A DNA stretch of 64,000 bases from an uncultured Candidatus Peribacteria bacterium (GCA_964469925.1 CAYXZL010000003.1:40448-104447), one strand, 5' to 3'; positions 1-64,000 are shown, counted from the first letter of the stretch. A program made the numbers and translations. The notes: generated from the letters alone by a model not told the origin.

Positions 1-807
1 GACAATCTTTTTGACGTCATCAAGGCTATACATTTCAGTAAATCTGATATCGATTTTTGCAACCGCTTTATCAGGGACGGCATTGATGGTATGTCCTCAT
101 TGTAACACATTGAGATTAACACTTGTTCATCGATGATCATCAGAAAAATAGACTTTCTGAGTATCTTGAAGTTTTTCTCTGAGGGTAATAAAGTAGTTAA
201 CAATATTGTGTAGCGCATTGATACCAAGCCATGGTCTAGAAGAGTGGCAGGCTTTACCTTGGGCCTCTACGGTAAACATGTAGATTCCCTTTTGTCCGAC
301 AACAATCTCATCGGTAGCACCCCCATCGGGTATCAGTACGATATTCGCCGTGTATCACATCTCGCTGATAATCGCGTTCACACCATCAAATCAGCCGACT
401 TCCTCGTCAGACGTAATCATAAGACAGATCTTTTTATCAACAAAGCGTTGATCCAAGATATCTTTCATGACTTGGATTATCAGGGCAACACCAGCCTTCA
501 TATCGCCAGCACCTCTAGCATAGAGTCTGCCCTCTTTTTCATAAGGAGAAAATTGTCCCTCTTGGGTTGGTGCAACAACATCAATATGACCGTTGAGAAT
601 GATGTCTGCATGAGTTCATTCGAAATTTTGTACCAGCAAAGAAGGTTTGTTATTGAAAACAACCTTTTCCAAGAATGCATGATCGTAGTGAGAAAAGTGT
701 TGAGCAATAGAGTCGATACATGCATGTAATTGATCAATATCAGACGATAGCGACGGGATTGCAATCAAATCACGAGTGAGAGAGACTATGGTGTGGGGGA
801 AGCTCAT
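1..807 (-). CDS. M20-family metallopeptidase (ArgE/DapE/acetylornithine deacetylase-like); C-terminus runs off the left edge
   Basis: Minus fragment 616..924 continues across in-frame TGA into NGHIDVV, GAGDMKAG and SDEEVGG motifs typical of M20 zinc peptidases. ATG at 805-807 lies 14 nt after the upstream stop. Confidence 0.8.
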
Positions 808-821
808 GGGGACAAAAGTAC

Positions 822-2162
822 TTAAAAAGGGATCTTGTGTGATTGTAAGAGTGGTATCATCGAGCTTGTCCAGGGGTGGCGAGTAATGGTGCTGATAAAA
901 GAGGAGAAATCGTGGGACCATCACTCTTTAGCGAGTTCCAAAAGCTTGACGGTAATTGGCTCAAGAAGTTTTTCATAATTACCGTTTGACGTCCAAGCCA
1001 GTTTGTCGTCGCTAGGCTGTAGACAAGAGGAGAGAGCATCAAAACTTAAGTCAAACGTATATGAATAGTCTTTTCTGTATCAACTGGAGTTGAAGATATG
1101 GATATTGTGAAGATTGGTGATCATAAGATACTGTACATATGAGTCAGAAACACCCTTTGCTAACACTCCCTTGTGTTCAAGGTAATAGGAAAACATCACG
1201 GAAATAAGGTCTGTACGTATCTCTTCAAAGGTGCTATAAGCAGCTCAGGCACGCTCGATGTATCCAGGATATTTACCGATAGTGTGACAGATCTCATGGA
1301 GGAGAACGTGGAGAAAATACCGCCTTTCAAGAAACGACGAAACATGCTGGTGTCACTCATCTGTGTAGACAATAGAGGACAATGGGATACTCATGGTATC
1401 AGTTTTGCGTTTGAGATTATTGAGAAAAACTTGTTTGATGCTACCATGTTCTGCAGCAAGTTGAGGGTTTTCTGGTCTGGACCATCAGGTGGCATTGAGT
1501 CTTTTAACTTCTCCAGACCAGTCAACAATATGGGACAAAACTGAGGTAACACGTGTTGGGCGATAGGATCCTGCTACTGAAAGAGATGCATGAAACGGCA
1601 CGATATGATCATGTACCGAACTAACAAAATCAACGAGTGACTGGTCAACCTGGGCAAAGACTGATGTAAAAAACCTTTTTTTGCCGTGTATGTGATCAGA
1701 TCTCGTCTCGATAGGGCCAAAGTTCCAAATATAGTCTATAGTAGGTTGAGAAAAAATATCTAGCCAGACTCACTCGAGTCTCAGTCGATCATTGTCACCA
1801 AGTGTTCTTTTGATTGCCTGTACAAAGTCTCTGAGATAGGAGGGTAGTTCCGAGTCAGCAAGAAGTTGGTCAAGCAATCTATCGATTGCGTCAAACTCTT
1901 CACGATACATGGTCACATAGGGTACGGATTGTATGCTAGAGTTTTCTCACTTTTTCATACAGCAAAACTGGTCATTGACAGCTGCTGGCAGTGTAGCAAT
2001 ATGCTCCATAAGCTGAGCATCAGCATAGGGATAGACACCACGGTCATCACCAATTTGAAGCTGGTAAATAGTTTCTATAAGAGCGTTGATATCCTGAATA
2101 ATGGCTATGATAGAGTTCATATAATCCTGTCTATAGGGGTAAACAAGTTTGGTACTGAGCAT
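822..2162 (-). CDS. HExxH zinc metallopeptidase, M49/DPP3-like (paralog 1), 446 aa
   Basis: Frame of ORF 1947..2219 stays open across 7 in-frame TGA down to TAA at 822-824. Contains LLHEICHTIG (HExxH) followed by FEEIRTD, which resembles the second metal-ligand motif of M49. N-terminus aligns with the gene at 5565..6854 (ETIYQLQIGDD vs DTIYWLQLGND). Confidence 0.6.
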
Positions 2163-10685: not shown

Positions 10686-10771
10686 GCCTGGGTGGCGAAA
10701 CTGGTAGACGCGTCAGACTCAAAATCTGATGACCTTTGGTTGTGAGGGTTCGAGTCCCTCCCCAGGCACCA
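10686..10771 (+). tRNA. tRNA-Leu (anticodon CAA), type II with long variable arm, CCA encoded
   Basis: Acceptor GCCTGGG/CCCAGGC. Anticodon stem TCAGA/TCTGA with loop CTCAAAA. T arm GAGGG-TTCGAGT-CCCTC. 3-prime ACCA. Confidence 0.9.
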
Positions 10772-10851: not shown

Positions 10852-11964
10852 CTACGTATGGCGTGCTGTTCTTTTCTTAGAATGTATGGTTTTGGGAGAG
10901 GTATTGATGCGTCTAATAGAGAAAAAAAGATTAACAAGCACCAAAAGAACAATCACACTGAGGGCTGCCCATACGGGAAACATAAAAAATGAAGCTGACT
11001 GCACCAGTGTTTCTAAATCTTCGGAGACTCAAGTGACTCATCCAATAGGATGATGTGTTAGTGCTAGATCGGCAAAGAAGTATCACTTATATCGAGGGAA
11101 AGCATCAAGGGAGAAGGTGATATTTTCTTGGTGTTGATTCATGATAATTTTGCTTTGCTTATAGACTCACACAACATATCACAGTGTATTTTTTATGGTG
11201 AGAGTAGCATCTACGTTTTCATCCAAATCTCAGTGATTATTGAGTCATACAACTATGGCAACCGATCACATGGGAGTTCTATGAGCATAGAGGAGAGGAT
11301 TGTTACTGATGTTTTCTCAACGAGGAACGTTGAGCGGCTCTATGATACTAAGTGTCGAGTTTGTCGGTCATTCTACCATAACGTCAATAAAATGCCCTTT
11401 GCGTACAACAACATTAAACTGGCCTGTCGAAGTATCAGAATATCAGGGATTGAGAGAAAATACTAAACATCAATGGTAGATACCCACAGCTGATGGAGGC
11501 AATGAGAGAGTGGCATGGGTAGTAATAGTTTCATTGGGACCAATAGAAAAAGTATCGGCATATCCACTGACGTACTGTCAAAACCTATCAGTAAATTCGT
11601 TGCTCTTACAGGATTTTTTCTGAAGAGAGTCTACAGTATATGCACCATCAACAAATCACATCACAACCGTGGCGGGTTTGTCATTGTTGTTATACAAAGA
11701 AAGACAGATGTCCAAAGGCTCGCCAGGTTTGACACTCGTAGTTAGACGGTCTTCTTGGTTTGCTGTATTATTCGGATTACAAAACTTCAGTTGAACATTA
11801 GTTAAGTCAGCAGTTATACCCATTGGATCATCAATGGGTGCGGGTGGCTGTACGGTGGAGGTTGTATCGGCTAAAGCTATTCAAGAGAAACAAAAAAACG
11901 CTAAGGAAAACAATCACAATAAGACGGAAGAAGGAAATAGCAAAGCTAGACGAAGTTTGATCAT
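10852..11964 (-). CDS. secreted, C-terminally membrane-anchored surface protein, CscA-like (DUF916/DUF3324-like architecture), paralog 4 of 4, 370 aa
   Basis: Signal peptide, conserved Cys pair, then GFVDG, KSCKSNEFTDRFGQYV, GCL, FNVVVRKGHFIDV and RYKG motifs and a C-terminal TM helix. Open frame across about 20 TGA to TAG at 10852-10854. Confidence 0.65.
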
Positions 11965-12036
11965 GCCACATAGCAAAATAAACGACTAAACCCACGTATA
12001 ATGATCACGAAAACAAATACAAGAAACAGTAGTTTC

Positions 12037-13377
12037 TTACTGGTTTGCTGGTCCTAGAGAGTCGACACTATTGTGCATATTCTGTCATCACTGTAGCTGG
12101 TTTTGGCCGAGAAAAGTTGGTTGATTTCAGCCTCAGGCACTTTGTGGCTGATGAGAATCCGGAGGCACTTGTGAGTCAGCAAATGACTGTTGAAATCAAG
12201 ATGGACCAAAAGCTCACGCAGTATTTCAAGGAAACATCATGTTCTGAGGGAAAGAGTTCATTCAGTTTTTTTGCCTTTTTTTATGTCTCCAGATGATAAC
12301 CACAAAGAGAACAAAGATGATGGCGATCAGCCATCGCCCAATACTGACACGTTTAGCTGTAGGCGTGTAACGGACAGGTTCAAGTTTTATTGTCTGTTTT
12401 TGTTTCATATCTTCCGTTACAAACTCGGACTCGAAATTATAGCTTGGTGTATGGTCAACACTAGCCGAGATACTCATCAATCACTTGTACCACGGAAAGC
12501 TTGGTATTTCAAACTGAACGTCTTGTTTACCTCAGGCTTCTACTCTCATTTCTTTTGTTTGCTGCATGATTTCTCTTCAAAGTATTCAGTGCAGACGGAT
12601 TGTGGTTGTGGTTTGCTGATCGACTTGTCCAGTATTGTTAAGTCATAAAGAAAGTAAAAGTTTACCCGAATCAACGGGGCGAAGAAAGAAGGGAGGGGCA
12701 CTAAGGAGGTTGGTTGTCTGGTCAAAGCCACTTGGTACACCAACACTAAAACCAGCCTCAAGTTGTCCATCGACAATTGCATCAATAAACTTTGCTTTAC
12801 GCAAGACAATATCAAACAATCATGTTGGTTTTTGTTGTGCGTTGGGAACAAATACTTCCACTGCTAAACATCACAAAAGATGCCCCACATAGTCATCAGG
12901 CAAACGGAGAGTCGCCTGTTGTTTAACACTCGAACGTGGCGGTATCGTCACTAACTTATCGTACTTGCTAACATACTGACCAAACTTATCAACAAACTCA
13001 TTACTCTTGCATGATCTCTTGCGCGTCGAATCGATAGTAATAGCTCCGTCTACAAAGTGAGTTTTGACTGCGATAGGACTCTTACTAGAATTGGTGAGGT
13101 TATAACATAGAGAGCGTGCAGCTCATTTTTCTAGTGTATAAGTAATGCCGTTGGTATTGCTCTCCACATCATCTGCACCTAAATCACAAAACTCTATATC
13201 GACAAAACCAAGAAGACTAACACCAGTATCATTGTCCTTGGGATTCTCTTCTTGTCCGTATCCAATGAGGGGAGAAAACGCTAGTATGCAGACAAGCATA
13301 GTGCGTATAAATATGGTGTTCACTGACTGGAGCTGCATAAGAAAGGCGACGTAGAGTAAAGGTGCGAAATCTATCAT
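12037..13377 (-). CDS. CscA-like surface protein paralog 3 of 4, 446 aa, with Q/P/G-rich cytoplasmic tail
   Basis: Fragments 13123..13377 and 12262..12480 are in the same frame. Motifs HFVDG, RSCKSNEFVDKFGQYV, FDIVLRKAKFIDA and PWYKG, then a TM helix and a low-complexity tail ending at TAA 12037-12039. Confidence 0.65.
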
Positions 13378-15855: not shown

Positions 15856-15924
15856 AGAGAAAAACCACCAATTATCTTCTAAAGCCCAAACCAGGATATA
15901 TAAAAGCAAAAAAGAATGCAAAAG

Positions 15925-15948: not shown

Positions 15949-15991
15949 CGTATACAATTGCGTAACTTTTGATACATAGATTGTCTACAAC

Positions 15992-25029: not shown

Positions 25030-26451
25030 ATGAATCTAACACTTAGCTCCTATATACAATCCTGCAAAAAAGGAGAGCTCACCCCAAAAGATGTACGAAA
25101 CTATTATATCAACAAGGCACAAAAAGAGAACCAAGAACTGAACGCATTTGCTTCTATTCAGTCAGACTATGCTGAAAGAAATTTTGACGCCCTAGTAAAG
25201 AATCCTTTTTATTGAGCACCAATCGGCATAAAAGATAATATTCTGACTAAAGGATACATCGCAGGAGCATGTTCAAATATGCTCAAAGAGTATGTTTCCA
25301 CCTATAGTGCAACCTGTTTTTCGAAGCTGGAAGAAAGAGGGGCATGTATGATCGGAAAAACAAATATGGACGAATTCGCAATGTGAGCAAGTAGTGAGTA
25401 TTCATCGCACGGGGTGACCAAAAACCCATATGATACGACAAGGGTTGCCTGAGGGACTTCATGATGATCTGCAGCCGCAGTCGCCGCAGATTTGTGTGTG
25501 GCGGCATTAGGAACTGATACAGGATGAAGTGTACGTATGCCAGCAGCCTTATGTGGCGTTGTATGATGCAAGCCAACCTATGGTCGCATATCAAGATATG
25601 GAGTGATAGCTATGGCATCATCGTTCGATCAAGTAGGTACGCTAACCAAAACAGTTGAGGATGCTGAGATCTTATTAGAAACAATGTCGTGATATGATCT
25701 TCATGACAGCACGAGTATAGCATCACAATCCACCAGTAATCGATCAGAATCACTAAAAAAGGGTGTAAAAGGTATGCGTATAGCATTGCCAGAAGAGTTT
25801 ATGGCCACTGGACTCCATCCAGCTATCAGGGAGAGAGTAGAACAGACCGTAAGGCAGTTACAATCAATGGGAGCGATCGTAGAGATGGTGAAGTTACCAC
25901 TACTAAGGTATGCCCTAGCAGTCTATTACGTACTAGTACCTGCAGAAGTAAGTACTAATCTATCAAAATACGATTGAATAAGATATGGAGAGCAGGGGAA
26001 TACTTTCGAGTATGAAGAGTTTCATGATTATACGACTACGATGAGATCACGTAATCTTGGACCAGAAGTGAAAAGAAGGATCCTAACATGAGTATATGTG
26101 ATGAGTAGTGCTAACTATGATGGCTATTTCTTGAAGGCACAAAAAGTGAGGATGTTGATTAAGAAAGAAATGGACAACATATTCTCCCAGTATGATCTCA
26201 TTATCGGACCAACCTCACCAGAGCCAGCACGAGAGATAGGTGAAAAGGCAAAAGACCCACTCAGGATGTATTTAGCAGATGTCTACACAGTACTAGCAAA
26301 TATAGTATGACTGCCGGCAATTTCGGTTCCGTCAGGAACGATCAATGAAGCTGGTAAGGATTTGCCAGTCGGCATACAACTCATAGCAAACCAACGAAGA
26401 GAGGATCTGATGTTCACCGGAGCTACAGCCATTGAGTCAATATACAGCTAA
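25030..26451 (+). CDS. gatA: Glu-tRNA(Gln)/Asp-tRNA(Asn) amidotransferase subunit A, 473 aa
   Basis: Amidase signature GGSSGGSAAAVA, with several of its glycines written as [13 protein letters not shown] and GTDTGGSVR are present. Fragments 25027, 25774 and 26098 are in the same frame. Confidence 0.9.
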
Positions 26452-28612: not shown

Positions 28613-30019
<1,407 letters not shown>

Positions 30020-31135: not shown

Positions 31136-32356
31136 ATGAAACTACACACCTCGACCCGTCTAAGTGTCCAATTTACCGCGGTGGCAACGATACTGGTGCT
31201 AGTTTTTGCTATTGGCATCAATATGCTTTTCCTCTCCATGTGGATGAGTAATGAGCAGAAAACATTAAACATAACTGTCAGCCGCCCACTACCACAGAGA
31301 CTTTTTGACAGAGTGGGGGCAAGAGTACGTAGTTTCCCTATCGATGACCCGCGTATACAGGACCTGATCCAGCATCGCTGGTACAAAAACATTATTCACA
31401 ATGGGGATGAACGGTATCTCTACAAGGTAGATCCACTTATGGTGACATTGGTAGATATTACACCACAGGTCGAGAGGCAACTAGACTTGGTGCGTCTTAG
31501 TCTGATAGGGATCATTCTATTTGCATTGATCAGTTACGGTGTATCAAGACGGTTCACGCGTCAAGCGTTGTCGGATATCCAAAAGCTAGCAAGCTTTGTC
31601 AATACGCTTGATCTCGATTCTCTCAATCAACGTATCCAGTTTGATCATGTACCAGAAGACGACGAAATAGCCGTGTTGGCAGAAACAATCTATAGCATGA
31701 ATAAAAAAATCCATGATCAGGTAGCTGCTATCAAAAGTTTTGTATCACATGTATCTCATGAGTTCAGGACGCCTTTTATGGTCATGCAAAGCGATAGTGA
31801 GCTGGCACTCAAGACCAAAAAGTACAAAGAAGGTCTAGATAACAATCTCCAAACGATCACGCAGCTCAATGGTTTGTTGGAGAGCCTTATAAGCCTAACC
31901 AAGGCTGAAAGTGCAAAGTTGGTCAAAACAATGGTCTGAGTAGGGGAGTTAGTAGAGTTGGCGACCAGGCAGGCAGAACTTCGTTACGACAAAATGATTC
32001 GCAAAAAGATAATGGTAGATACCTCACTCACTATCAAGGCAGACAAAAACGCACTTACAAGCATCATCTCCAATATCATAGACAATGCTTACAAGTATAC
32101 ACCTCCAACGGGTACGATTACTATCACAGCAAACGCAAAGATGATACGCATCGAAGACACGGGCAAAGGAGTTTCTACAAAGGACATACATCATATTCGA
32201 GATGAGTTTTGGCAGGCAGACGATTCAAGGTGAGTGGATACATGATTTGGATTGTGACTCAGTCTTGTAAAAAAATTGGTAAGTTTACACGGTCGACGTA
32301 TCACAGTCCAAAGCGAAAAAAAGAGGTGAACATGCTTTACAATATATTGGTCCTAA
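31136..32356 (+). CDS. sensor histidine kinase (two TM helices, HisKA, HATPase_c), 406 aa
   Basis: H-box SHVSHEFRTPF, N-box IIDNAYKYT, G-boxes EDTGKGV and GFGLGLSLV (glycines as TGA). Fragments 31136 and 31958 are in the same frame. Confidence 0.85.
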
Positions 32357-38974: not shown

Positions 38975-39589
38975 ATGCAAGCAGTGGCAGCAATCACGTC
39001 TATGATAGTAGCACTATGATCTCGGTTAGTCCACTGAATCGAGTCTGTCTGGGTAGCAGGAAATGAGGTGTATCAAACACATATTTCTCCATTGCCAAAG
39101 ACGACAGAATATTCATGATCAACCAGCACACACCGTGATGAGTTGCAGATAAAAGTAGTGGCTGAACAAGAGGGAAGCATCAGTCGTGAACAATACTGTT
39201 TCGACACGGTATGTGTTGATCTAGAGATAGCAGACACACAGTCAGCTCGTAGCTATTGATTGATGTTTAGGGAAGATATGCCGGAATTGTCTGGGATGAT
39301 GTTTGTGTTTAAAGAGCCTTGAATCAATATGTTTTGGATGAAAAACACACTATTGCCGTTGGATATTTTATGGGTCGATAAATCGGGGATAGTAATCGAT
39401 ATACAAAAGGCTGACCCTTGTACCCAAGATCCATGCGATACCTATTGACCACATCAGGAGTCATTGTATGTGGTTGAGCTCAATCAAGGGATTTCGGACA
39501 AATATAGGATAGTAAGAGGATCCCATATACAGTGACCTCGTTTTAGCTATACTTCACAAAGAGAAAAAGAATGATTCGAACAACAATAG
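38975..39589 (+). CDS. DUF192 (COG1430) family protein, 204 aa
   Basis: LEIADTQSARSYGLMFRE, GMMFVF, MFWMKNTLLPLDILWVD and YVVELNQG are the DUF192 core strings. Confidence 0.7.
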
Positions 39590-40665
39590 CACTGTTTATG
39601 AGTAGCAGCACCTTCTACTATCTGTTGGCAGTAGTTGTAGTAACGATAGCGTTTCTGATAGCAAAAAAACGGTGAAAAGAAGCAATTCACAAGGCTTTAC
39701 ACAAAAAAGTTCATGAAAAACATATAGTAGCAATTATCTCGAGGGCTGCCTACCTTGGTCGGATTATCTACATATTGATGGTAGTAAATCTGGTGTGAGG
39801 AATTGATTCCATTGCACAAATCCGAGGACCAATAGTAAGGTACTCGCTCTTTGCTACCGACACCATACGTGTTACCTTGTGATCAGTGGCAAAAGGAATA
39901 ATCGTGCGGCACGTATTGTTTCAAGTACTAAAACTAGCAAGATATACCGTAAGATCGTACGTGCATTACGATGACGATATTCACACAATCGAAATACTGA
40001 TCTACAACACTGCTTTGATTATTATCGTCTTTTTTGCGATAGGAACGGTAGGGATCAATCGAAAAATCCTTATCCCCATAGCATGAGCGGTGGGTATCGG
40101 AGTAGGGTTTGGCTTACAGGATCTACTCAAAAATATTATTAGTGGTCTAACCATTATGTTTAGCAGGTCGGTCAAGGCAGGGGACCGAGTGACGGTAGAT
40201 GAGTATTATGGGAAAATTAGTGAGATAGGTCTGAGGGTATCGGTGCTGAGGACACTAGACAATATAGAGATATTGGTGCCAAACTCTATCTGGGTAAGTC
40301 AAAAACTCATCAATCGGTCATACAACGACAGCAAGGTAAGAATTTGTATCCCCGTGAGAGTGTCCTATCAGAGTGATGCGTCACTTGTCAAAAATGTGTT
40401 GTTGGAGGTGGCAGAAAGTGCTGAGCATGTACTCAAAGAACCATCACCAGACGTCATTTTTGTCTGATTTGGTGAGAGTGCTCTTCAGTTTGAGTTACGC
40501 GTTTGGATGAATGTAAAAAAATACACCATCCCACCTTTCAAAAGCGACATCAACTTTGCTATCCGACACGCGTTCAAAAAATACGGTATTCAAATACCAT
40601 TCCCACAACACGATGTGTGGTTCCGCAATAAACTATCTCTAACACCAACCAAAGAGGGTGAGTAA
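39571..40665 (+). CDS. MscS-family small-conductance mechanosensitive channel, 364 aa
   Basis: GVGFGLQDLLKNIISGLTIMFSRSVKAGDRVTVDEYYGKISEIGLRVSVLRTLDNIEILVPNS is the MscS pore-helix and beta-domain signature. Fragments 39886 and 40090 are in the same frame. Confidence 0.85.
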
Positions 40666-43886: not shown

Positions 43887-44966
43887 ATGTCAAAAAAAGA
43901 TGAAGTATTACAGGATGCGTTTAGGTCGATCGAAAAGCAATTTGGAAAAGGAGCAATCATGAGGATGGGAGACAGTAGTACAGTAGCGATGGTCAATACC
44001 TTCCATACCTGATCGTATGTGTTAGATATGATCTTGGGTGGGTGATTTCCCGAGTGAAGGGTATTAGAGATCTACGGTCCAGAGTCGTCAGGTAAAACAC
44101 TTATGGCACTACAGGCGATAGCAGAGATACAAAAAAGGTGAGAGTTGTGTGCCTTCATAGACGCTGAGCATGCACTAGATCCAAGTTTCGCGAGATTACT
44201 AGGTGTCGATACAGATAACTTGCTCTTGTCCCAACCAGACTATGGGGAACAAGCTCTCCAGATAGCACAAGAGTTAGCAAAAACAGGAGCGGTAAAACTG
44301 ATAGTCATCGATTCGGTAGCCGCCTTAGTACCAAGAGCAGAGGTGGAGGGCGATATGGGTGACAGTTTTATGGGCTTGCAAGCGAGAATGATGTCTCAGG
44401 GATTGAGAAAACTAACATCCATACTTGCTAAAACAGGAACTACCTGTATCTTCATCAATCAAATCCGTATGAAAATAGGGGTTATGTTTGGTAATCCTGA
44501 AACCACGACAGGAGGTAATGCCCTCAAGTTTTTTTCGTCACAAAGGTTAGAAGTCAGAAAGGGAGAGAAAATAACAGAAGACAAAGAAGAAGTATGATAC
44601 GCTATCAAGGTAAAAGTAGCCAAAAACAAAATAGCACCTCCATTCAAAAAAGCCGAGCTTCCTGTCCGCCGGTGACAGTGATATGATCCAATAGGTGATG
44701 TGATTGAGGCAGGCTTATTATTGGGAGCAATAGCAAGAGCATGAGCATTTTATACTATCGGTAGCGAAAAGATTCAAGGGAAAGAAAGACTCGGTGAATA
44801 TCTCCAAAAAGATCAGAAATTGCTCAATGATCTAGAAAAACATATTCAGACTAAGATCAAACAGATGAGAATGGGAGAAAAGGTTTTGAATGATGCCGCA
44901 CTAGATGATGTACAAATAGAGACAGAGGGTGATGATATGGAAATAGATGAGAGTGGCGAAGAATAG
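43887..44966 (+). CDS. recA: recombinase A, 359 aa
   Basis: GPESSGKT Walker [21 protein letters not shown] and [27 protein letters not shown]. Eight in-frame TGA fall at conserved RecA glycines by my reading. Confidence 0.95.
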
Positions 44967-51900: not shown

Positions 51901-52984
51901 TACGAGTCTCTCTCATGAGAGATAAAAGAGTTTTCCCATCAGATGTCTGCGTAAGTTGAGTTTCATCAAACCAAAACGCCTCGCTGCCCTTGATGGCTTT
52001 TTTGTAAGGACCAAGACGAGTCAGAATGTAGGTCTGCAGCAATGGTCAACAAAATGATGTCGATTCATATTTTTTAGCAATAGTGAGGAGGGAAGAATGA
52101 GGAGCCCGTTTTTCAACAGCAGCAGCGAATTGCTGATCATTGAGACGCATAGTACCCAAATAGAGTTCCAAACTATCACGTGCTATACTGTCAATTGGGA
52201 AACGGGAACGTCCTTGAGAAATAGAAATATATTTGTTTTTGAGGTCTTGGAAATATTGACCGATCTTTTTCATCCTCTCCATATGCAATACGCAATCCTG
52301 GAGGGTATGGTGCGTCATACCTTCTCACTTGTAGTTTTTGTAATCAGGGAAGACGTAAAGATAATGAACAAAGAACACCTGTAAGTTGCGTACAACATAA
52401 GGTAGATAGTCCTGTTTGACAGTAGCACGTGGCAAAAGTCTCGCTATGTCGTCAACACGAAGAGTCGTCCGAGATTCTTTCGTGGGGAATTGTTTGAGAA
52501 TAACGCTCCAATTTGGTACAGTGTCCAAAGATATTCCCATGATTTCAAGGTTTTTCTCGGGAGGAACGGTAGTGGCGACCAATAACTCATCACGATAGTG
52601 CTTGTTAGAGTTTTGTAGTTCGAAGGAGTTAAGGTGTTGGCGAAAGGCGGAGAATTGTTCATACAGGTGGAGTTCATGATCCAGGAGAGGTAAGCCACCA
52701 TCTCAGCGACTAACAATAGACAAAAATTGTTCAGCAAAAGCACGAGATGTTTCATCGAGGCTATCGCAGGTGGCGGGGTTGGAATAGCTATCAAGTAGCT
52801 GTGACAGAGCTTCAAAAAAAGAATGAGCAACATCTCCTGCTTGCTCAATTTCTCATGGGAGTACCGCCAACTCGTGCGGTTCATCCAAGAGTCCCTTTTG
52901 TAGTCACTGCAAAAGCTCATTGTATGAGACAATGTTTTGATCTTCTTGTTGATTCAGTTGTCTAATCTGATCAATAGTGTTCAT
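48902..52984 (-). CDS. giant hypothetical protein, about 1360 aa
   Basis: Seven listed fragments (52325, 52046, 51338, 51023, 50519, 50213, 48995) share one frame, and I read the gaps without TAA/TAG. Central Gly/Ala-rich hydrophobic segment. Start at MNTIDQIRQ (52984). TAG at 48902-48904. Confidence 0.7.
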
Positions 52985-53264
52985 CGAGTCAATCGAGTAA
53001 ACGATTTGCATCATCTTCATCATGAATACGCTCCTGTTCCTCTTGTACGTGGATCTGCTTGATCGTATCGAGTTGCTGCTGCAATGCGTGTTGCATTTTT
53101 TTATTAGCAAGACGGCCAACAGCTGCATTGATCGGCTTCAATACAATATCGAGCATACTGTCAGGGAGATCGTAGTTTTCTACCACGATCAAAAGTGCAT
53201 CTGCACTGTCCCAATACGGTTGCAGCTTAGTCAAAACACGTATAAGTAAGTCCTTTTTGTTCAT
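52962..53264 (-). CDS. hypothetical protein, 100 aa, 3-prime end overlapping the giant ORF start by 23 nt
   Basis: ORF 52989..53264 extends 8 codons past TGA to TAG at 52962-52964. Helical, acidic C-terminus. Confidence 0.5.
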
Positions 53265-53470
53265 GGCTCACATCCAAATGAAGCCACGATAATCATACTG
53301 ACATCTAGCACAAAAAATGAGATACGAGGCTTCCTCAAAGGATCATGTATTGACAGAGGGAGGTTTTGACATGAGCATATGAATGGTGTAGAAAACATGT
53401 CGTTTTTTTGCAATCAAAAAGAGCGGGGACTATAATAGTACTACTTATAGATTTACCTGCTACAGAGCCG

Positions 53471-56400
53471 ATGCGTCGACACAGCCTAGTCAGCTCAGTA
53501 ATAGCCAGCCTATTGCTGGTCAACATTGCGTTTGCACAAAGTTGTGTCATCATGATTGACAGCAACATAAATGAAGATAAGTCGTGATGATATGATGGTT
53601 GCCTAACTGGTTGTATACTGACAGATGCGAACAAGGTAACCGATAACGAACAGAATACCACAGCGATTATGTCGGTACCCGCTGTTGATGGAAAAGGATG
53701 ACAAAGGTTGACAATCAGCTTCCCAACGACGTTCACACCAGGTACGACAATGTGATTTGGTCTGGTAGATGATGCGAAAGCATTGAATTCGTATCTTCCC
53801 TACCTTACGCTGAGAACCTATTACAATGGTGTGAGTAAGGATGTCATAGCTTGATCATCAATATTAGTATCGACCTTGTCTTGACTGCAAAAAACACTTT
53901 CTTTCGTAACTACCACAGAGTTAGACACCATGCAGATAGATGTCGATGCTCCATCTTCATGATCAGCTTTAACACTAAAATTTGACTTCCCCTTTTACTC
54001 CACAGGTAGCTTTACAGGAGACCTAGACGCAGACACAATTCCCGATGTTTGTGATGGTGACCGAGACGGTGATGGGATCGCAAATGGGGCTGATAATTGT
54101 CCCTTGAGCGGAAACGCTCAACAAGAGGATCTTGACGGAGATAGTATAGGAGACATATGTGATGATGACAAAGATGGTGACTCTATTGTTAATAGCGTAG
54201 ATAATTGTGTCAACACAGGTAACAACGATCAGGCTGACCGTGACAATGACAAGGTAGGGGATGTATGTGATAGTGATATCGATGGAGATACAGTCAGTAA
54301 TGATAAAGACAACTGCCCACTCCTAGCAAACAATAATCAAATCGACACAGACAAAGATAGCATCGGAGACGACTGTGATGAGGACAAAGACGGCGATGAA
54401 ATAATAAACGTGGCAGATAATTGTTCCATGAAATCAAATCCACGTCAGGAAGACTTAGATGGTGATGGCATCGGAGACGACTGTGACGATGATCGAGACG
54501 GTGATAATGTAGCTAATAATTGAGACAAGTGCCCACGAAATAATGACCCACAACAGCTTGATACAGATCAAGATGGCTTTGGAGATGCTTGTGATGACGA
54601 TCTTGATGGTGACACGATAAAAAACATAGAGGATAATTGTCCCTGAGCGGTAAATCGAGAACAAGAAGATATGGACTCAGACTGATCGGGAGATGTGTGT
54701 GATGACGATCTCGATGGTGATTCCGTTGCGAACAGCGTCGATAACTGTGATCGTGTGGCCAACCCACAGCAGGTGGATACGGATGCAGACTGATTATGAA
54801 ATGCATGCGATCCAGACAAGGATTGAGACACGATAATGAATGAGAGCGACAACTGCCCCCTCGTGATAAATTCAGATCAAAAAGACAGCGATGCAGATGG
54901 CATCGGCGATCCCTGCGATATTGATCAAGATGCAGATGGGGTTAAGGATAGCGATGACAATTGTATGCTTATCTCAAATCCAGATCAGAAAGATACTGAT
55001 CAGGACGGCTTTGGCGATGTATGTGATGATGATATTGACGGAGACCAAAGAGAAAACGCAGATGACAATTGCCCAACGATCTCCAACCCCGATCAATATG
55101 ACACAGATCAAGATACAATAGGTGACCCCTGTGACAATGACGTAGATGGAGATGGGATAAATAACGCAGACGACAATTGTCCGACCACAGCCAATGAACT
55201 TCAAAACGACAGTGATGGTGATGAGGATGGAGACATGTGTGATGATGATCGTGACGGTGATGGAATTGCTAACATAAATGACAATTGTCCCTATTTTGCG
55301 AATCCTTGACAACAAGATCAAAATCAAAACCTCATAGGAGATGTGTGTGAAGATGATGATGATGGTGATGGAGTTGGTAATGAAAGCGACAACTGTCCTA
55401 AGCTCAGCAATGCAGACCAGCAAGATAGAGATACCGATGGTGTTGGAGATGTCTGTGATACGGATAAGGACAACGACGGAGTGTTAGATGCCATAGACAA
55501 CTGTCCTGTACTTTCCAATCCGGGACAGGTTGATGGAGATGGCAACGGAATAGGTGACAAGTGTGAAACAGACTATGATGGAGATCTAGTATACAATGCA
55601 GAAGATAACTGTCCTAGCAAATATAATCCAAATCAATGAGATCAGGATGGTGATGGAATTGGTGATGAATGCGACAACGATAAGGATGGTGACAAAAGAC
55701 TCAATGCACAGGATAATTGTGTGTGAGTAAGCAATCGACGACAGCACGATATAGATCAAGATGGAATTGGTGATGAGTGCGACGTGGATATGGACAATGA
55801 CGGCATAGTGAACGAGCTAGACAATTGTCAGCGAGTAATAAATAGTGACCAAAAAGACGAAGATGGAGATGGAACCGGAGATGTCTGTCAAGACGATGCT
55901 GACAAGGATTTGATAAACAACGAGCTAGACAATTGTATATTTATTTATAACCCAGATCAAAAAGACAGCGACGCTGATGGCATCGGAGATACATGTGACG
56001 ATGATCTTGATCAAGATGGTTTCCTCAATCAACAGGACAACTGCCCAGTGGCAAACAATCCTACACAAACAGATAATGACAGTGATGGTATAGGAGATAT
56101 CTGTCAGGATGATTATGACGGAGATGGAGTCTGAGATGATCAAGACAACTGTTTAGAGATAGCCAATCCACAGCAGTGAGATAAGGACCTGGATGCTATA
56201 GGAGATTTGTGCGATCCAGACAAAGATGGTGACAAAATAAAAAATAACGCAGACAACTGTCCTAGCATAGCAAACTTTGATCAGAAAGATATCGATGGTG
56301 ATGGAGTCGGCGATAAGTGTGACGCAGATAAGGATAACGATGGTATAGATAATCAGAACGATAATTGTCCCATGATAGCAAACAGCGACCAGAGCGATGA

Positions 56401-57340
56401 AAATGTTGACGGTCAGGGGGATATCTGTCAAGACGATCAGGACGGCGATGGCATAAAAGATGCCAATGATAATTGCCCAACAATTCAAAATATGCTACAA
56501 ACAGACGCAGATCAAGACGGTTTCGGTGATGACTGCGATATCGATAAAGACAACGATGGAATAGATAATCAAAACGACAACTGTCCATGGGTAGTAAACC
56601 CAGACCAAATCGACGAAAACATCAATAAAATCTGAGATGCTTGTGAGGGAGACGACGATTGAGACGGGATAGAAAATGACGTGGATAATTGTCCAATGGC
56701 CTATAATACGGGACAGGTCGATCAAGATTTTGATGAAATAGGAGATATCTGTGACGGTGATAGTGATGGAGACTGACTGGAAAATGGCTTTGATAACTGC
56801 CCTAGTATAGCAAACACAGACCAAATTGATATTGATGAGGATGGTGTAGGAGACGTTTGTGATGATACGATCTATGGTACGGGAGTAGTCAGACTATTGG
56901 ATTATGACATTATATTCGGTACGATAAAAACGAGCAAAACAGCTCAAATTATGAGTGGTCATGTAGCTGGTGATGGACTGATAAAGGTGCAAGATACAGC
57001 AGGAACCAAGCCTCGGTATGTGACGATCGAATTTACCGATATTGTCAATAAAACATACGGTAACAAGATAGATGCCGATAATTGTTTTTATAGAGTGAAT
57101 CCAGATGCTGAAGTGGTGGCGGTAGAAGACTTCTATCCATTACAAGTCTCCAATCATGGTGGAGAGATTGCTCTAGGAGAGCCAGTACAGCTGTTCCATA
57201 GAGATGTGTTGAACGGGCAAAAAGGAACAATGGGTATAGGAACAGCCAGCGGAGCAATCGATATCCGATGCAATATACCACCATTTTTGAAACCATGAGA
57301 GTACGAGTGAGACATTGTTCTCACCCTCATAAGAGACTAA
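53471..57340 (+). CDS. secreted thrombospondin type-3 (calcium-binding) repeat protein, 1289 aa
   Basis: Signal peptide [23 protein letters not shown] and a 180-aa N-domain. About 26 units of DxDxDGxxDxxDNCPxxxNxxQxDxDxDGxGDxCD follow, then a 150-aa non-repeat C-domain. Six listed fragments are in the same frame. Confidence 0.85.
54020..56870 (+). repeat. in-frame tandem array of about 26 degenerate ~108-nt TSP3 repeat units (approximate bounds)
   Basis: The GAYAAYTGYCC (DNCP) core recurs with a regular period. The repeats generate the many spurious antisense ORFs listed at 54455..56824. Confidence 0.8.
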
Positions 57341-57394: not shown

Positions 57395-59185
57395 TTATCA
57401 AGAAATATAGAGTATATCATCCCAAGGAGTCCTAAACAAACCTTCGTCCAATCTTTGTTGGTCCAAATAATGTCCGATAAAGCCGATAGATCTTGCAAGT
57501 ACAAAAAACGCATTAGCAATACCAGCATTGAGATAGTGCTGAATATCAGTAGCATCCATGCCAATGCCTATCATCAAATCAAGGAGTAAGGCGGCAATAT
57601 GACCATCAACATTTAAAATCAGATTTGGTTTTTTTTCCAAAGTGAGCTTCTCGACTGCCTTAGCAAAATCAATATGTGTACTTGTGGGGAAATGTGCTGC
57701 AATCTCCAATAAAAGGCTGCATCTCGTGTCGGGATTATATTTTGACTTCACTCTATGACCAATTCACTGGATCAGCTCGCCTCTACCTTTGTGGTCATCA
57801 ACATACTGCTCGGGGCTCCGTCAGTTATGTACTGCGGAGAAAAACCCTGTAGCTGCACCATCAATGGCTCCACCAAAGCGTGGTCAAATGGTGGCTAGTC
57901 CTGCAATAAGACTAGAAATTAGGTCTTTCCCAGCTCTTGCGGTAACAATAGTGTTGATGGCACCAGACACAGCGGGACCATGGTCGGCAAGGAGAATCAA
58001 GACTGTAGTAATGAAACGCAGAGCCCAATCAGGAAGCTCTTTCTTGAGCCAGAGATGACCGATAACACGAGCAATAGATTGTGATGTCACAAAATCATCA
58101 ACAGCGATACCATCGTACAGAAGTGTCTCGCCTCTTTCATCGCTAATGCTTGAACTAAAGCGACTTGGTCTCCTGCGATTGATAACAGATAGTCTTTCCA
58201 ATACAGTAGTCTCGGAGATGAGAGGCTCTGCTATGTGGCAGTGTTGTTGAAAAACAGATGAAATGAGACTACCAAACTCTCTATAGCTGTTCGGTACATG
58301 GATGCCAGCCTGTTGAAGATAGTCTATTTTGTAGGATGATTTTTCTTCATCGGTATTGGCCTTGGCTCATGCATGACCAAACTGTACGTCTTGTGTCGTC
58401 TGCTCGGCAAATGAACCGCTGACCCAAGCTACAACAGGCTTGGTAATCGATCATGCTTTGACTAAATCTGCAACGGCGAGTTCATCTTTGTTGCCAACTT
58501 CACCGAGCATGACAATCATCTGGATATCGGGATTGTCCTGATATGCCAATACGATATCTGCAAATTGAGAAAAAGGATATCTATCTCAACCTAATGCAAT
58601 AGCGGTGTGTACTCAGTCAGTATTCTGTGCAATTACCCTACACAACTCATTCATCATCCCTCATGACTTAGAGACAAGCCCCACAGATCATGGTCTGTAG
58701 AGCTTCGACTTAATAATATTGTCAAGTGATCATCCAGTATATCACAATCTCAGCACCCCCGCACCCAGTCAGCCAACAGTCGATGGACCAATCAGGAGGA
58801 TATCTCTTCCTTCGTCACGTTTGATCTGTTGTTTGAGTGCTATAAGCTCTCTACTTTCCCTTTCGGGTATCCCTTCTGCAACGACTACAATAGTGGTGAT
58901 CCAGTCATATGTCATCGCTTCACGCGTACTCGTTGTGGCAGAGCGATGAGAAGAAAAATTAAGTAGACAATGTGCTCCCGTCGGTTGTGCATGAGCAAAA
59001 TCAGGAAAAACTGGACAGAGAAATTCAGAAGCACCATAGCTAAGTTTGATATTACCCTTGTTTCCAGGGCTGATAAATCAAACAATACTAGGAGTCCTCC
59101 CACATAGATAGTCAAAATCCAACATTCTTTGGGCAACCACCTGCTGCTTGCCATAAATGAGGCAATACGTATCTGCGGAAAACAT
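57395..59185 (-). CDS. aclA: ATP-citrate lyase alpha subunit (CoA-ligase plus citrate-synthase-like domains), 596 aa
   Basis: Collinear with the remembered human ACLY C-terminal half. Shared strings: MLDFDY, IIAEGIPE-like VVAEGIPE, GPSTVGG, NTGG-like YTGGSLDNI, KLYRPGSV, SKSGGM, GGDRYP, catalytic-His loop QFGHAGA, ADHGPAVSGA, GPRFGGA, GIGHRVKS, KKPNLILNVDG and FIGHYLDQQRL. Confidence 0.9.
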
Positions 59186-59219
59186 CAATCAGACCAACAA
59201 TCAATAAAACACTAGCTCT

Positions 59220-59801
59220 TTACTGCTTGGCAAATTCTATCCCCTTCATACGTCCAATAGTATAGACTCCAGATTCTCACCTGTGTATTTCAAGGTATGC
59301 ACAATCTGCTAAAGAAGCAATTTCGCCATGCCACAAGAGCTCCCTGGCAATACAACGTATGGGTCACCCGTGAGTAACAATCAGAGCACGATCATCTTTT
59401 TGCACATCATCAAAAGCATCGCAGACCCTAAAATTGAATGCACTGTAGTTTTCTGCACCCATAACAAGACCATCGTAACGAGAGACCTTCTCAACCAGAT
59501 CGGGGTACCGTTTTTGTGCATCGAGCTTGATCATACCGCTGAGAATACCATAGTGGTTTTTTTCACGAAAATCATCGTAAATCATGACATCGACTCCCAA
59601 GCGTTGACCAATAATCTCTGCAGTCTGCTGAGCCCTGATCAAGGGGCTGGTATAGATGACAGAAATGGCGTAATCACGAAAATCATCAGCTAGAGACACT
59701 GCTTGTTCAAATCATAGTTCAGTCAGTTCATCATTGTATAGTCATCCATAGCGATTCTCGACGTCGCTAGTACTTTGACCATGCCTTACCAATCGTACCA
59801 T
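59220..59801 (-). CDS. histidine phosphatase superfamily branch 1 (PGAM/cofactor-dependent phosphoglycerate-mutase-like), 193 aa
   Basis: N-terminal LVRHGQS (RHG catalytic motif), SPLIRAQQTA and a late THGG. ORF 59364..59699 extended both ways across TGA. Confidence 0.8.
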
Positions 59802-59887
59802 AGATAGATTATGCTGATAAATATTGGGAATGTAGCTCTTCTCAACGCAAATACAACCAAAAGAAACCATAGGGACAAGGCTAGGCA

Positions 59888-61126
59888 CTAACGAATGTTT
59901 CTCAAGATATCGGTCATATAGATATCTCCATCAGCGGTAGTGACGGAAATGCCATGTTCTTTGCATACACGATCGACCATTGCCAGTCCTTTCGTATCGT
60001 TGAGTCATCATCTCCTGACCAAAAGTCTGATATCTTGCTGTTTGATTACTGCTGCACAATCGGTAATCGCATCACACACACCAATAAACAGGCTATCAAT
60101 ATAGGTGAAGTTTGCTATCCCACCAGCGATTAAGAGGTATTTGTTTTGTGCTTTGCTTGCAAGCATTTGTTTGATAACAAGACGAGAGTACTCCCTGTTA
60201 GAGTCGGTGTCGGGGTTGCCAGAAAGTTCTCCATAGTTTGCAATATCATCTGATAAGCCCATTTCTCAGAGGCTATCAATCAAAATGACTGATGCACCTC
60301 AACCGCCCAAGATCATCCAAATACGACCATCGGGATTGAGGATATGGAGCTTGAGACTTGCAGCACTTTTCTCATCCATGTCCTGTACAATAGCTTCTAC
60401 AGGATCAATATTGGTACCAAAAGGCTTGATTCGGTGTATGTAACCCCAAGCCCCTCACATCCTGATCTGAGCACAATCGTCGACCTTTGCAACCATATCA
60501 AGTAAGATACTCTTACCATCAACAATAGTGAAGGGATTACATTCCACGTACACAAAGCCATTGCTCCTAAAAAAACGAAACAGACGAGCAATAAGTTCTA
60601 CAATAATGCCACGGTCACCATCCTGATCAATGTCTCATTGTCACAAGAGTTGTTGAAGTTGCTCATCGGTGATCGTGTCCAAAACACCAATACGAAGGGA
60701 GCTGACCGATTCTCGATTCTCCTCAACATCAACCCCTCAGCGAGGAGAAAAGTTGATGATATCGGCATCTCTCTGTGTCTCAAAAGAAAGATAATACTCC
60801 TGCGTATGTGCTACATAAGGCTCAATCAAAAAGGTCGTCAAAATTCATGATATGCCATTGACGCTAGTAGCCTTCCCCATTCTGTCGGCAATCCAATGGT
60901 GCACTCACTCTGCATCGAGTTTGAGTCCTATCAATCCGTGTTTGCCTCTCTTGCCAAAAAGCTGATCAGGCTTGACGACAAACAGATCATAGTCAGACTC
61001 TTGTAGCTGCCTAATAAGAGAGCCAAGCTCCTGCGGATTGCTGACAATCCAGCCACTATAGGGCTGACCACTGTGCTGTGACCAGAGGATTTTCGCATCA
61101 TACTCACGAATGCCACGTTGTGCCAT
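59888..61126 (-). CDS. aclB: ATP-citrate lyase beta subunit (ATP-grasp/citrate-binding), 412 aa
   Basis: IREYDAK, VVKPDQLFGKRGKHGLIG, FLIEPYV, SAASLKLHILNPDGRIWMILGGGGASV, ANYGELSGNP, GGIANFT and VRRGG are collinear with the ACLY N-terminal half. I read the gap 60262-60905 without stops. Confidence 0.85.
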
Positions 61127-61264
61127 ATACAAAAAATAATACTAAAGAGTTGCAAAAAGAACCCAACTGTGAGTAGTCAACACTATCAGAAATACCACGT
61201 CAATCACAAAGGGACTGGTTGACAGGTGAGAGGAAAGATGTATACAATTGAATGAGAGGCGATA

Positions 61265-64000
61265 TTAGTTTCTTGGATTATTGAGGGCATGGTAGTAATT
61301 AACAATATCGCGAACCTCCTCACGAATAGCGACAGAACGAACTCGATCATCAAGCTCTTTACCTGTAGAAGCTGGATTAGGCCTGGGGATGAGTTCAAAG
61401 CTTTTTTGGGTCATGCGGTCACGACCAAAGGGATAGCAGGTTGTGGCACGCCTTGCAAAAGTAATTCAGGGACGAAATGCAGGTCAATCTTGAGGTCTTA
61501 CAGGATTGATAGTACCAAACATGAGATCAGTAAATCAGCTAGCACTAAATGACATGAGAACAGGAGCGGCAGAGTCTCAGCTATGGATACAGGTATCAAG
61601 GAGGAGGGTCGGCTCACCAGCATTGAGATAGAGATTTTTATACCTTGTTTGAAACTCAGTCTGGATGTCCTCAAAGCTTTCTGGCAACGAAAAAGGATCG
61701 CAGGCATTTCCTTTTCTGTTTTGCTCATCAATAATATATCTCGCCTCCTCTTCATCGTACATTTCTTTTGACTTAAATCCCATAGGATTAACAAAATAGA
61801 TTTTAGGCCTTTGTGCTCTGGGCCGCCCTTCCAAGTTCCAGTACCTCATAAGACCCAGTGCCATTGGCCTCATAGAGCGATCAAACAAAACAAGGTTCTT
61901 AATGCCATGAGTCCTAATATAGTCTGAGACACTCACGATGTGTCCATACAGCTCAGCCCTTGCCATCTCAGTGTCGAAGATGTCGTATTGTCTACCATTG
62001 CTATCAGTGTCTGTCTTGCCACAATATCACTCTCTGATCAGCCACGATGCTTGCTCAATCGTCAATCAACCATCAATCAAGATACGCATTTTTCTTGCTA
62101 ACTGCTCAGGTGTATAATTGTAAAGCTTAGCAGGTGTGCCATCTTTACCTTTCTCTCCACTACCAACTTGATGGGCGACCTCAATGAGTTCTTGAAGGGC
62201 AATATCGCTGATGTCGGGGGTCTGTCTGTTGGAAAATTGTTCTTTGAAAGGAGCAACTTTTTGACTCTTATCCAGCTTACTATTGGCTTGTTTACGGATA
62301 CGTTCAGTTTCGATACTATCATCTTCAAGGTCACGTTGAATAACGTCGAGTGCGAGATCTTCTGATACAAGATCTTTTCATCATCTGATAGCAGCATCAG
62401 CTCTTATATCGATACCTGCACCAAGCGATTCACGTAAACGTCTTTTCAGAGACTCTAATGATTTGCCCGTACCAATCGTGTCGTCAATGAGGGTAATATG
62501 AGAAACGCCACGCAAAAATTCGGCAGGAGTTTGAGATGGCGAGATTGCTGTGTAGGAAATCGTCCCATCAGCTTGTCTCTCAAGCACCCATCCATGGTAA
62601 TTGCTATTGGGGTCGCCGTTTTGGTGTGGATCGAGAAAAAACACTTTGTCACCAGTCTTTTTGAGAGATGCTCTCGCACTTTCCATCATAAGGAGCCCAG
62701 CATACAGCATAACGACTGGCGTCCTACCATCTTTGCGACAACGGTCGAAGATGAGTGTTCCCCTCATGTTAAACAGGTCAAATCACTGTCTACTCACTTG
62801 TGCGGCTTTGGCAGCATTGATAGTTCTAGTAGGATCATTGACCGCCTCCAGTGCATTCGTCACAGCAGCTTGATAGTCTGCCTGATCCGTAGCTGTTTTG
62901 TCAGATGATTGGAAAGTTAGATAGGCATCGATGACAGCGTCTTGCTGTGGACCAGCATCAGTATACTTGCAAGCGAAGTAGAATCATAAGTCACCAAACT
63001 TTGGATGAAGAAGATCTGTAATCTCGCTCTTCCCAAACTGAGCTTGTCTGTGTTGAAGTGCATCTAAAGAGCTAGGTGGAAGGAGTGTGGGAATCGACTG
63101 CTCTGGAAGTGTAAAAGCAGAGACAAGAGCGTTTATCGTGTTGATCAGACGCTGTCTGATGGCCCAATCAGTAGGATCCATGTTTTCTATGAGTCAGTTG
63201 TAGATGGAGAGGAGTGTGCTTGCACGTTTTTGCAACTTCTCGAGTTCTCATTTATTTTTAAGGAGTTCTAGTGCTCATCATCATGACGCTCTGGAGGTAG
63301 TCATGGCAGTAAGTGCTATGGTTTCTAAATAATCATCAACTGTGTTGATCTGAAAAACCGTCTGGAAGGTTTGGTTGATGCCAAGGTGCGTAAGATCCAT
63401 GATCCCATTAGTCAAGAGCTCTTCACTAATTTCTCCTACCACTTCGTAACCAAACCTTTTGACAATCTCACGTTTGGTCATATCTCCCAAATATTTGCTC
63501 ATGTATCAGCCAGAGAGTTTTTCTCAGACTAGGCTTTCTACGACACCATCGACGCTACTAGCAAAAAAGGCATATTCTGCAGCTCAAGCTCACGTTAGTC
63601 CGCTATTGATAGCAAGTGTAAGGTTGTCGTCTAAGCGACCAAAATAGGCCCATCACAGCTTCCCAAGTACATCAGAACTAGGGGGTATATACTCCGCAAC
63701 GACACCAGCACGGACCAAGAGTGATTCAGCCTGTTCGGAGAGGAACCTAGCTCCTGTCCTCATGAGGAGAAAGTCAGTGTAGGCACTTTCTGTTTTATAA
63801 AAAAGTGATCAGATGTTCCAACTCCCGTCAGGGTTGACAAGAGGGGTAGAGGCCATGACTGATGCTGGCGTGGTAATAATGCCAGTAGTCTTACTAAACA
63901 GATTTCCTTTGTTCCAATCATCAATCATCTGAGCTTCATATTTATCGTCTGATAGCCATTTTGCCCCAGCAACACTCAAGTCATAGGGAGATTTGAGTGT
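61265..64000 (-). CDS. giant hypothetical protein with two PRTase-like modules; N-terminus beyond the right edge (more than 911 aa visible)
   Basis: Fragments 63281, 62984, 62381 and 61577 share one frame, open to position 64000. TAA at 61265-61267. HITLIDDTIGTGKSL and TLLLDTCIHSGDS resemble type-I phosphoribosyltransferase PRPP loops. Confidence 0.7.

Follow-up and report, generated by a model that had tools for sequence, protein, structure and literature searches.

Evidence for UGA as glycine and for CGA and CGG as tryptophan in a genome deposited as Candidatus Peribacteria

In SR1 and Gracilibacteria, UGA encodes glycine, a code catalogued as NCBI translation table 25 (Campbell et al., 2013; Rinke et al., 2013; both as cited in PMC13695967), and for Absconditabacteria it has been predicted that, besides UGA as glycine, CGA and CGG encode tryptophan (Shulgina and Eddy, 2021, eLife 10:e71402; PMC8629427), a prediction repeated in a 2026 paper (PMC13092985). 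The combination of UGA as glycine with CGA and CGG as tryptophan has thus been in print since 2021. Here we examine a stretch of 64,000 nucleotides (hereafter the window) from an assembly deposited as an uncultured Candidatus Peribacteria bacterium (GCA_964469925.1, CAYXZL010000003.1:40448-104447), together with the rest of its genome, and argue from comparative sequence analysis that this genome very probably uses the extended Absconditabacteria (SR1) code, in which UGA stands for Gly and both CGA and CGG for Trp, with UAA and UAG as the only stops. To our knowledge, no NCBI table covers this combined code.

The genome agrees with the Absconditabacteria code of 2021 (PMC8629427) in all three predicted reassignments, in its Trp-type tRNA(UCG) and tRNA(CCG) and its Gly-type tRNA(UCA), and in having no release factor 2 (RF2); like those genomes it also has no tRNA-Arg(ACG), keeps a tRNA-Arg(GCG) for CGU and CGC, and writes arginine mostly as AGA. 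The tRNA-Arg(ACG) is missing in the candidate phyla radiation (CPR), and tRNA(UCG) has been argued to force CGA and CGG to change together (PMC8629427). Unlike in the 2021 Absconditabacteria genomes, the use of CGA and CGG is further advanced here, and the GC content, 0.385, is slightly higher. With the table 25 lineages the genome shares UGA as glycine, a tRNA-Gly(UCA), the loss of RF2, a small size (1.17 Mb) and CPR affiliation; the difference is that CGA and CGG remain arginine in table 25 and apparently not in this genome. Table 4 organisms (Mycoplasmatales, Entomoplasmatales and several endosymbionts) likewise have UGA as a sense codon, have lost RF2 and show the same structure of open reading frames (ORFs), but in our genome UGA would be glycine, and the tRNA(UCA) reading it would be of the Gly and not the Trp type. 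In Anaerococcus and in Onthovivens/RFN20 Bacilli, too, an arginine codon of the CGN box, CGG, has been taken by a Trp-type tRNA(CCG) (PMC8629427; PMC13092985); these differ in that CGA stays arginine (tRNA-Arg ICG) and UGA stays a stop. In the present genome both CGA and CGG would be tryptophan, probably because a tRNA(UCG) cannot tell them apart.

Reading frames and codon meanings

Under table 11 the window contains 21 ORFs of at least 150 amino acids, the longest of 267, and with TGA as sense it contains 77, the longest of 1775. Measured as non-overlapping stop-to-stop ORFs of at least 100 amino acids, coding cover rises from 43.6% under table 11, with no ORF reaching 300 amino acids, to 92.9% with TGA as sense, when 27 ORFs do so; control read-through of TAG gives 63% cover and two such long ORFs, and that of TAA 60% and one. 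The same jump in cover was found on all substantial contigs of the assembly (1.165 Mb, 24 contigs, 96% complete, GC 0.385), and the recoding is therefore a property of the whole bin, contamination being excluded.

A preliminary description of the window had claimed that TGA breaks genes in the standard-code reading while leaving their fragments in frame, and this is borne out: the rejoined ORFs match Pfam families from end to end, including RecA (399 bits), Amidase (443 bits) and ATP-synt_ab (246 bits) as well as both ATP-citrate-lyase subunits, a histidine kinase and a response regulator, SSB, a signal peptidase, VIT1 and MscS. With UGA, CGA and CGG recoded, all of the seemingly broken genes of the window would be intact. 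Its further statement that genes end in TAA or TAG also holds for the 41 complete ORFs of the window (23 TAA, 18 TAG), a result that is automatic once TGA is read through. In total 42 window ORFs comprise 19,395 codons, with 463 TGA, 86 CGA, 37 CGG and 142 TGG; TGA is the commonest glycine codon (31% of Gly codons), and the 123 CGA and CGG codons would make up 46% of the Trp codons.

To read individual sites, window proteins were aligned to solved structures from standard-code organisms, TGA having been masked as X beforehand. In the five proteins RecA, GatA, AtpD, AclA and AclB, 41 of 47 masked TGA codons face Gly and none faces Trp, the six exceptions falling at variable positions (Table 1). 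A comparison with references at the TGA columns had been proposed in the preliminary description for RecA, AtpD, GatA and ATP-citrate lyase, and the motifs named there are all present with TGA at the stated glycines, save that the GatA motif reads GGTSGGS rather than GGSSGGS. With TGA-encoded glycine in lower case, they are HT-g-S, LGG-g and E-g-R in RecA; G-g-T-S-g-g-S in GatA, with a tandem TGA at 25462-25467; the Walker A motif GGA-g-VGKT in AtpD (29552-29554); the catalytic loop GHA-g-A (58367-58369), TVG-g, S-g-GM and G-g-DR in AclB; VRR-g-g in AclA, with two TGA at 60005-60010; and the G-box of the histidine kinase (Table 1).

The CGA and CGG codons of the window stand at positions of a different kind. 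In the MscS-family channel, CGA at 40060-40062 (GIN-x-K) and CGG at 40315-40317 (LIN-x-S) face an invariant Trp of E. coli MscK and MscM. Among the four CGA codons of GatA, that at 25741-25743 faces Trp in Aquifex GatA, that at 26395-26397 faces Trp in Aquifex and Phe in Thermotoga, that at 26230-26232 faces Phe in both, and the last faces Val at a variable site. In AclA, CGA at 60713-60715 faces Trp in Methanosaeta concilii ACLY-A, and at 60431-60433 another CGA is opposite a Phe shared by that protein and human ACLY; the RecA CGG at 44670-44672 faces the conserved Tyr of ILYGEGI. The thrombospondin type-3 (TSP3) repeat protein serves as an internal control, several of its repeat positions being filled by recoded codons: TGA recurs at the invariant Gly of DxDxD-G, and the CGA in DNCQ-w-VINSDQ occupies the repeat position that elsewhere holds a TGG-encoded W (in a segment of 11 protein letters not shown).

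Table 1. Features of the window and of the rest of the genome that bear on the code. Plain coordinates are window positions; those with a C prefix lie outside the window.
Feature	Location	Strand	Remarks
tRNA-Leu(CAA)	10686..10771	+	only RNA gene within the window
gatA-type amidase	25030..26451	+	11/11 TGA face Gly; 4 CGA
atpD (F1 beta subunit)	28613..30019	-	4/5 TGA face Gly; fifth at a variable site (Gln/Glu)
Histidine kinase	31136..32356	+	G-box D-T-g-FGL-g, both Gly encoded by TGA (32243-32245, 32255-32257)
MscS-family channel	39571..40665	+	CGA and CGG at invariant Trp
recA	43887..44966	+	8/8 TGA face Gly in E. coli RecA, e.g. 44010-44012, 44043-44045, 44055-44057
Thrombospondin type-3 repeat protein	53345..57340	+	1331 aa, secreted, about 26 Ca-binding repeats; Pfam TSP_3, 774 bits
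ATP-citrate lyase CoA-ligase/citrate-synthase subunit (AclB)	57395..59233	-	12/13 aligned TGA face Gly in human ACLY
PGAM-type histidine phosphatase ORF	59220-60077		overlaps the AclA/AclB junction
ATP-citrate lyase ATP-grasp/citrate-binding subunit (AclA)	59888..61132	-	6/10 TGA face Gly
tRNA-Gly(UCA)	C1:120140-120213	-	74 nt
Short GGQ protein	C1:141249-141368	-	ArfB-like
Trp-type tRNA(CCG)	C1:157988-158059	-	
TrpRS gene	C2:77536-78522	+	sole TrpRS gene; 2.2 kb from Trp-type tRNA(UCG)
Trp-type tRNA(UCG)	C2:80715-80786	-	
Class-I release factor	C7:58921-59982		12 in-frame TGA

For a genome-wide measure, all ORFs of the genome were aligned to 800 kb of G080, a complete genome from the same class that uses the standard code, and ten test codons were masked in the same way. 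Of 1534 TGA codons, 54.1% face Gly and 0.3% Trp, and the control codons GGA and GGT face Gly in 57.4% and 60.8% of cases; in a likelihood built on the substitution profile of these alignments, Gly is preferred to Trp by 2438 log-likelihood (lnL) units. The reassignment of CGA was already visible in a first tally of all 64 codons made without masking, where CGA faced Trp in 25% of cases and Arg in 8% despite its translation as Arg. After masking, CGA (n=309) faces Trp in 29.4% of cases, followed by Leu, Phe and Tyr, and Arg in 5.2%; CGG (n=73) faces Trp in 19.2%, followed by Phe, Ile and Tyr, and Arg in 5.5%. The background frequency of Arg is 5.0%, masked TGG faces Trp in 37.0% of cases, and masked arginine controls face Arg far more often (CGT 35.8%, CGC 28.3%, AGA 48.1%, AGG 46.6%). 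Trp is enriched 40-fold at CGA, and the likelihood prefers Trp over Arg by 408 lnL units for CGA and 72 for CGG while returning the standard meaning for all seven control codons.

The RNA polymerase subunits RpoB and RpoC gave the same picture at columns at least 80% conserved among 66-75 standard-code Patescibacteria. There, 36 of 42 TGA codons lie on Gly columns, and TGA is the commonest codon on the conserved Gly columns (36, against 34 GGA and 32 GGT). All three CGA or CGG codons on conserved columns (two CGA and one CGG) fall at columns that are 98-100% Trp, the single CGG on an RpoC Trp column conserved at 100%, and neither codon occurs on any of the 88 conserved Arg columns of the two proteins.

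Transfer RNAs, synthetases and release factors

Among the 41 tRNAs that ARAGORN reports in the genome is one with the anticodon UCA, which the preliminary description had suggested looking for. Its acceptor stem (G1-C72, C2-G71, G3-C70, G4-C69, with U73) is that of the genome's two tRNA-Gly genes and differs from that of tRNA-Trp(CCA), which has A1-U72 and G73. Homologues of this tRNA(UCA) were found in 54 of 61 sampled genomes of the family. In each of 30 copies examined the anticodon is UCA and the Gly elements are retained, while the acceptor stems show compensatory changes. The anticodon loop is (C/A)U-UCA-GC in 30 of 30 family genomes (L175-L204), G37 and C38 being invariant, whereas tRNA-Gly(UCC) and tRNA-Gly(GCC) of the same genome have A37-A38.

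Two further tRNAs carry the anticodons UCG and CCG. Shulgina and Eddy (PMC8629427) recognized Trp-type tRNAs by G73 and the lack of A20, supported by A/G1:U72, and the same rules were applied here. In both, A1-U72 and G73 are accompanied by U20. The tRNA(UCG), which starts AGGGG and ends CCCCU-G, resembles tRNA-Trp; the UCG and CCG tRNAs share 65-69% identity with tRNA-Trp(CCA) versus 41-58% with the arginine tRNAs. The arginine tRNAs with anticodons GCG, UCU and CCU, by contrast, all have A73 and A20. A Trp-type tRNA(UCG) is present at 30 of 30 family loci examined, representing about 25 genera. A search for a second tryptophanyl-tRNA synthetase (TrpRS) in the genome returned only the one TrpRS gene, which lies close to the gene for this tRNA (Table 1).

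The genome has a single class-I release factor, which scores 404 bits against prfA versus 232 against prfB and carries the RF1-type P-x-T tripeptide (PDT) and the GGQ motif, with no SPF; its own gene contains in-frame TGA (Table 1). RF2 (prfB) was not found in the genome, which is 96% complete, in keeping with the absence foreseen in the preliminary description. That description's claim that UGA is glycine accordingly stands on each of its counts: the TGA columns are Gly and not Trp, a Gly-type tRNA(UCA) is present, and RF2 is missing. Its assignment to table 25 fared less well, since the part concerning UGA holds while CGA and CGG, arginine in that table, both behave as tryptophan. The only other match to the RF-1 domain in the genome is a short GGQ protein with a His/Lys-rich C-terminal tail, resembling the ribosome-rescue factor ArfB.

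These components suggest how the code would operate. RF2, the factor that reads UGA, would have been lost, and the remaining RF1-type factor would stop translation at UAA and UAG. The dedicated tRNA(UCA), bearing an identity set for glycyl-tRNA synthetase (GlyRS; G1-C72, C2-G71, G3-C70, U73), is predicted from these elements to be charged by that enzyme and would put Gly at UGA. In the same way two dedicated tRNAs, with UCG and CCG anticodons on a tRNA-Trp body, would put Trp at CGA and CGG, their identity elements pointing to charging by the single TrpRS; such charging would imply that the enzyme accepts G36 and either U34 or C34. Arginine would be left to CGU and CGC, read by the tRNA with anticodon GCG, and to AGA and AGG, read by the tRNAs with anticodons UCU and CCU.

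Relatives and the spread of the code

The nearest named relatives by RpoB share 63-78% identity with the genome, and all other Patescibacteria share about 45%. The closest is CP060225.1, deposited as 'Candidatus Peribacteria' HK-STAS-PATE-9 (75-78%), followed by two other metagenome-assembled genomes (MAGs) labelled 'Peribacteria' (65-69%), an unclassified MAG (64-66%) and 'Candidate division SR1 bacterium MS502-49' (65%), the named relative whose label is credible; a BD1-5 reference with a name did not turn up among the RpoB relatives. All five carry TGA at conserved Gly columns of RpoB and RpoC, and the 'Peribacteria' labels are therefore probably wrong, as probably is the translation table used for those deposited genomes. 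The three entries titled 'Candidatus Peribacteria' (L044, CAYWIJ010000012.1; L045, CAZBFX010000001.1; L048, CP060225.1) cluster with the SR1 genome. As for the lineage, the preliminary description had named Gracilibacteria/Absconditabacteria (CPR), which is sound though a little too broad: the reassignment of CGA and CGG, as read from the sequence, points to Absconditabacteria (SR1) rather than to the BD1-5 Gracilibacteria.

In-frame TGA in rpoB sets the family apart, occurring in 18 of 18 sampled family genomes, in none of 15 others of the same class and in none of 57 others of the phylum. RF2 shows a similar distribution, being present in 93 of 121 genomes of the class and missing from 11 of 11 sampled family members. 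In the taxonomy used, the class holds this RF2-less family beside about 90 standard-code genomes with RF2 and six other families that lack it (f57, f63, f65, f67, f71, f72); families with and without RF2 thus share a class, and the class-level label does not predict the genetic code.

Codon usage varies widely within the family. Over all long ORFs of our genome, CGA and CGG account for 54% of Trp codons (CGA 60, CGG 18 and TGG 68 per 10,000 codons). In ten sampled relatives the corresponding share is 17-49%, and TGA makes up 15-70% of Gly codons, from 70% in G074 (L155-L158; GC 0.285) down to 15-17% in G107, G126 and HK-STAS-PATE-9 (GC 0.39-0.41). The family range of 17-54% for CGA and CGG shows no simple tracking of GC. 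The genome is thus the upper end of a continuum in its family and no separate state.

It is possible, although we advance this only tentatively, that a more specific arrangement has evolved in this genome: CGA and CGG would encode most tryptophans (54% of Trp codons) and depend on two dedicated Trp-type tRNAs and on one TrpRS whose anticodon recognition is relaxed to little beyond C35, and G37-C38 of tRNA-Gly(UCA) would be a specific adaptation, possibly through m1G37, against misreading of UGG by this U34 tRNA. As far as we found, neither the majority state of these codons nor the G37-C38 adaptation has been described before in the literature.

Alternative readings and consequences

Readings in which UGA is not glycine fare poorly. 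Table 4, the code of Mycoplasmatales and some insect endosymbionts in which UGA is Trp, opens identical ORFs, and RF2 loss is common to the organisms that use it; what speaks against this extremely improbable reading is that TGA faces Trp in 0.3% of 1534 genome-wide sites, against 54% for Gly, and at none of the 47 sites in the five structurally aligned proteins, and that the tRNA(UCA) has a Gly acceptor stem with U73 in place of A1-U72 and G73. The chance that the genome keeps the standard code, with its TGA codons being true stops (in pseudogenes or through assembly errors), selenocysteine codons or sites of programmed read-through, we regard as vanishingly small. The 463 in-frame TGA codons of the 42 window ORFs lie at conserved Gly columns, such codons occur in essential genes (recA, atpD, rpoB, rpoC and, with 12, prfA) and recur in 18 of 18 sampled family genomes, and 93% cover is reached only with TGA as sense. 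A selenocysteine reading can appeal to ARAGORN, which labels the UCA tRNA 'SeC'. That identity was rejected on the structure of the molecule, a canonical 74-nt cloverleaf that lacks the long variable arm of tRNA-Sec, as well as on the Gly columns.

More serious competitors to the extended code concern CGA and CGG. Plain table 25 has in its favour that its reading of UGA as glycine is fully supported, and about 5% of CGA and CGG codons do face Arg in G080 (32 of 382 face Arg or Lys). That 5%, however, equals the background frequency of Arg, the Arg- or Lys-facing codons come from weak alignments, are spread so that no ORF holds more than two, and form no gene cluster, and the 40-fold enrichment of Trp at CGA, the likelihood margins (408 and 72 lnL units), the zero count on the 88 conserved RpoB and RpoC Arg columns and the lack of the Arg elements A20 and A73 in the tRNAs that read these codons make it very unlikely that they remain arginine. 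Somewhat less remote, and still very unlikely, is an intermediate state with UGA as Gly and CGA as Trp in which CGG would be Trp only in part, or else ambiguous or unassigned. In favour of this, CGG offers the fewest sites and the faintest Trp signal (19% versus 29% for CGA), and its status is mixed among related Gracilibacteria (Shulgina and Eddy, 2021; PMC8629427). On the other side stand the dedicated Trp-type tRNA(CCG) and the expectation that tRNA(UCG) would read CGG too by wobble; moreover, CGG is matched by aromatic or hydrophobic residues (W, F, Y, I, L) and by Arg only at the background rate, CGG occurs at an invariant Trp in MscK and MscM and on the RpoC Trp column conserved at 100%, and the likelihood picks Trp.

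The extended Absconditabacteria code, which we consider very probable, has points of its own to answer. The CCA anticodon is normally a major determinant for TrpRS, and C35 and G36 are determinants for arginine; given both, some mischarging or ambiguity may occur. The evidence on CGG comes from just 73 sites, and a smaller fraction of them face Trp than at CGA. A tally of the window ORFs against G080 alone, in which TGA faces Gly at 17 of 31 sites, places none of 9 CGA and 2 CGG codons at Trp; for CGA it is uninformative, as the TSP3 repeat protein supplies most such codons, at sites that vary. Placement in SR1 would lean on the code itself and on a single named relative whose RpoB is 65% identical, and the case for the code is comparative throughout. 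Finally, traits typical of Absconditabacteria, though not defining them, lie beyond the clade ranges published in 2021 (PMC8629427): GC is 0.385 against 0.26-0.38, and CGA and CGG usage is 60 and 18 per 10,000 codons against <37 and <7, our counts being taken over all long ORFs and theirs over Pfam-aligned columns (homology-aligned codons of our genome give 40 and 11). This excess is a matter of degree and has no effect on membership in the extended code.

Correct translation of the window and of the genome would need TGA as G and both CGA and CGG as W, and this bears on every other reading of the window. Annotation under table 11 yields debris, and table 4 would write Trp in place of Gly at about 2% of codons. 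Table 25 would place a charged Arg at about 0.8% of all residues where Trp belongs, affecting over half of the tryptophans, often at buried or invariant aromatic sites; such errors degrade homology searches, structure predictions and motif calls (e.g. WxL-type). Most of the large window ORFs (e.g. 17981-23308, 48902-53146, 61265-63979, and the region 10852-17870 and other orphans) matched nothing in Pfam in their table 25 translation, and for these orphans translation of CGA and CGG as W could alter motif calls such as WxL. More generally, the genome would add a further well-supported case of bacterial sense-to-sense reassignment, in which captured codons at high usage bear on models of codon capture.

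The window also holds a complete split ATP-citrate lyase (57395-61132, minus strand), whose AclA and AclB score 277 and 522 bits against the Methanosaeta and human ACLY structures, with a PGAM-type histidine phosphatase ORF overlapping their junction (Table 1). Such an enzyme is unexpected for a CPR genome of about 1.2 Mb.

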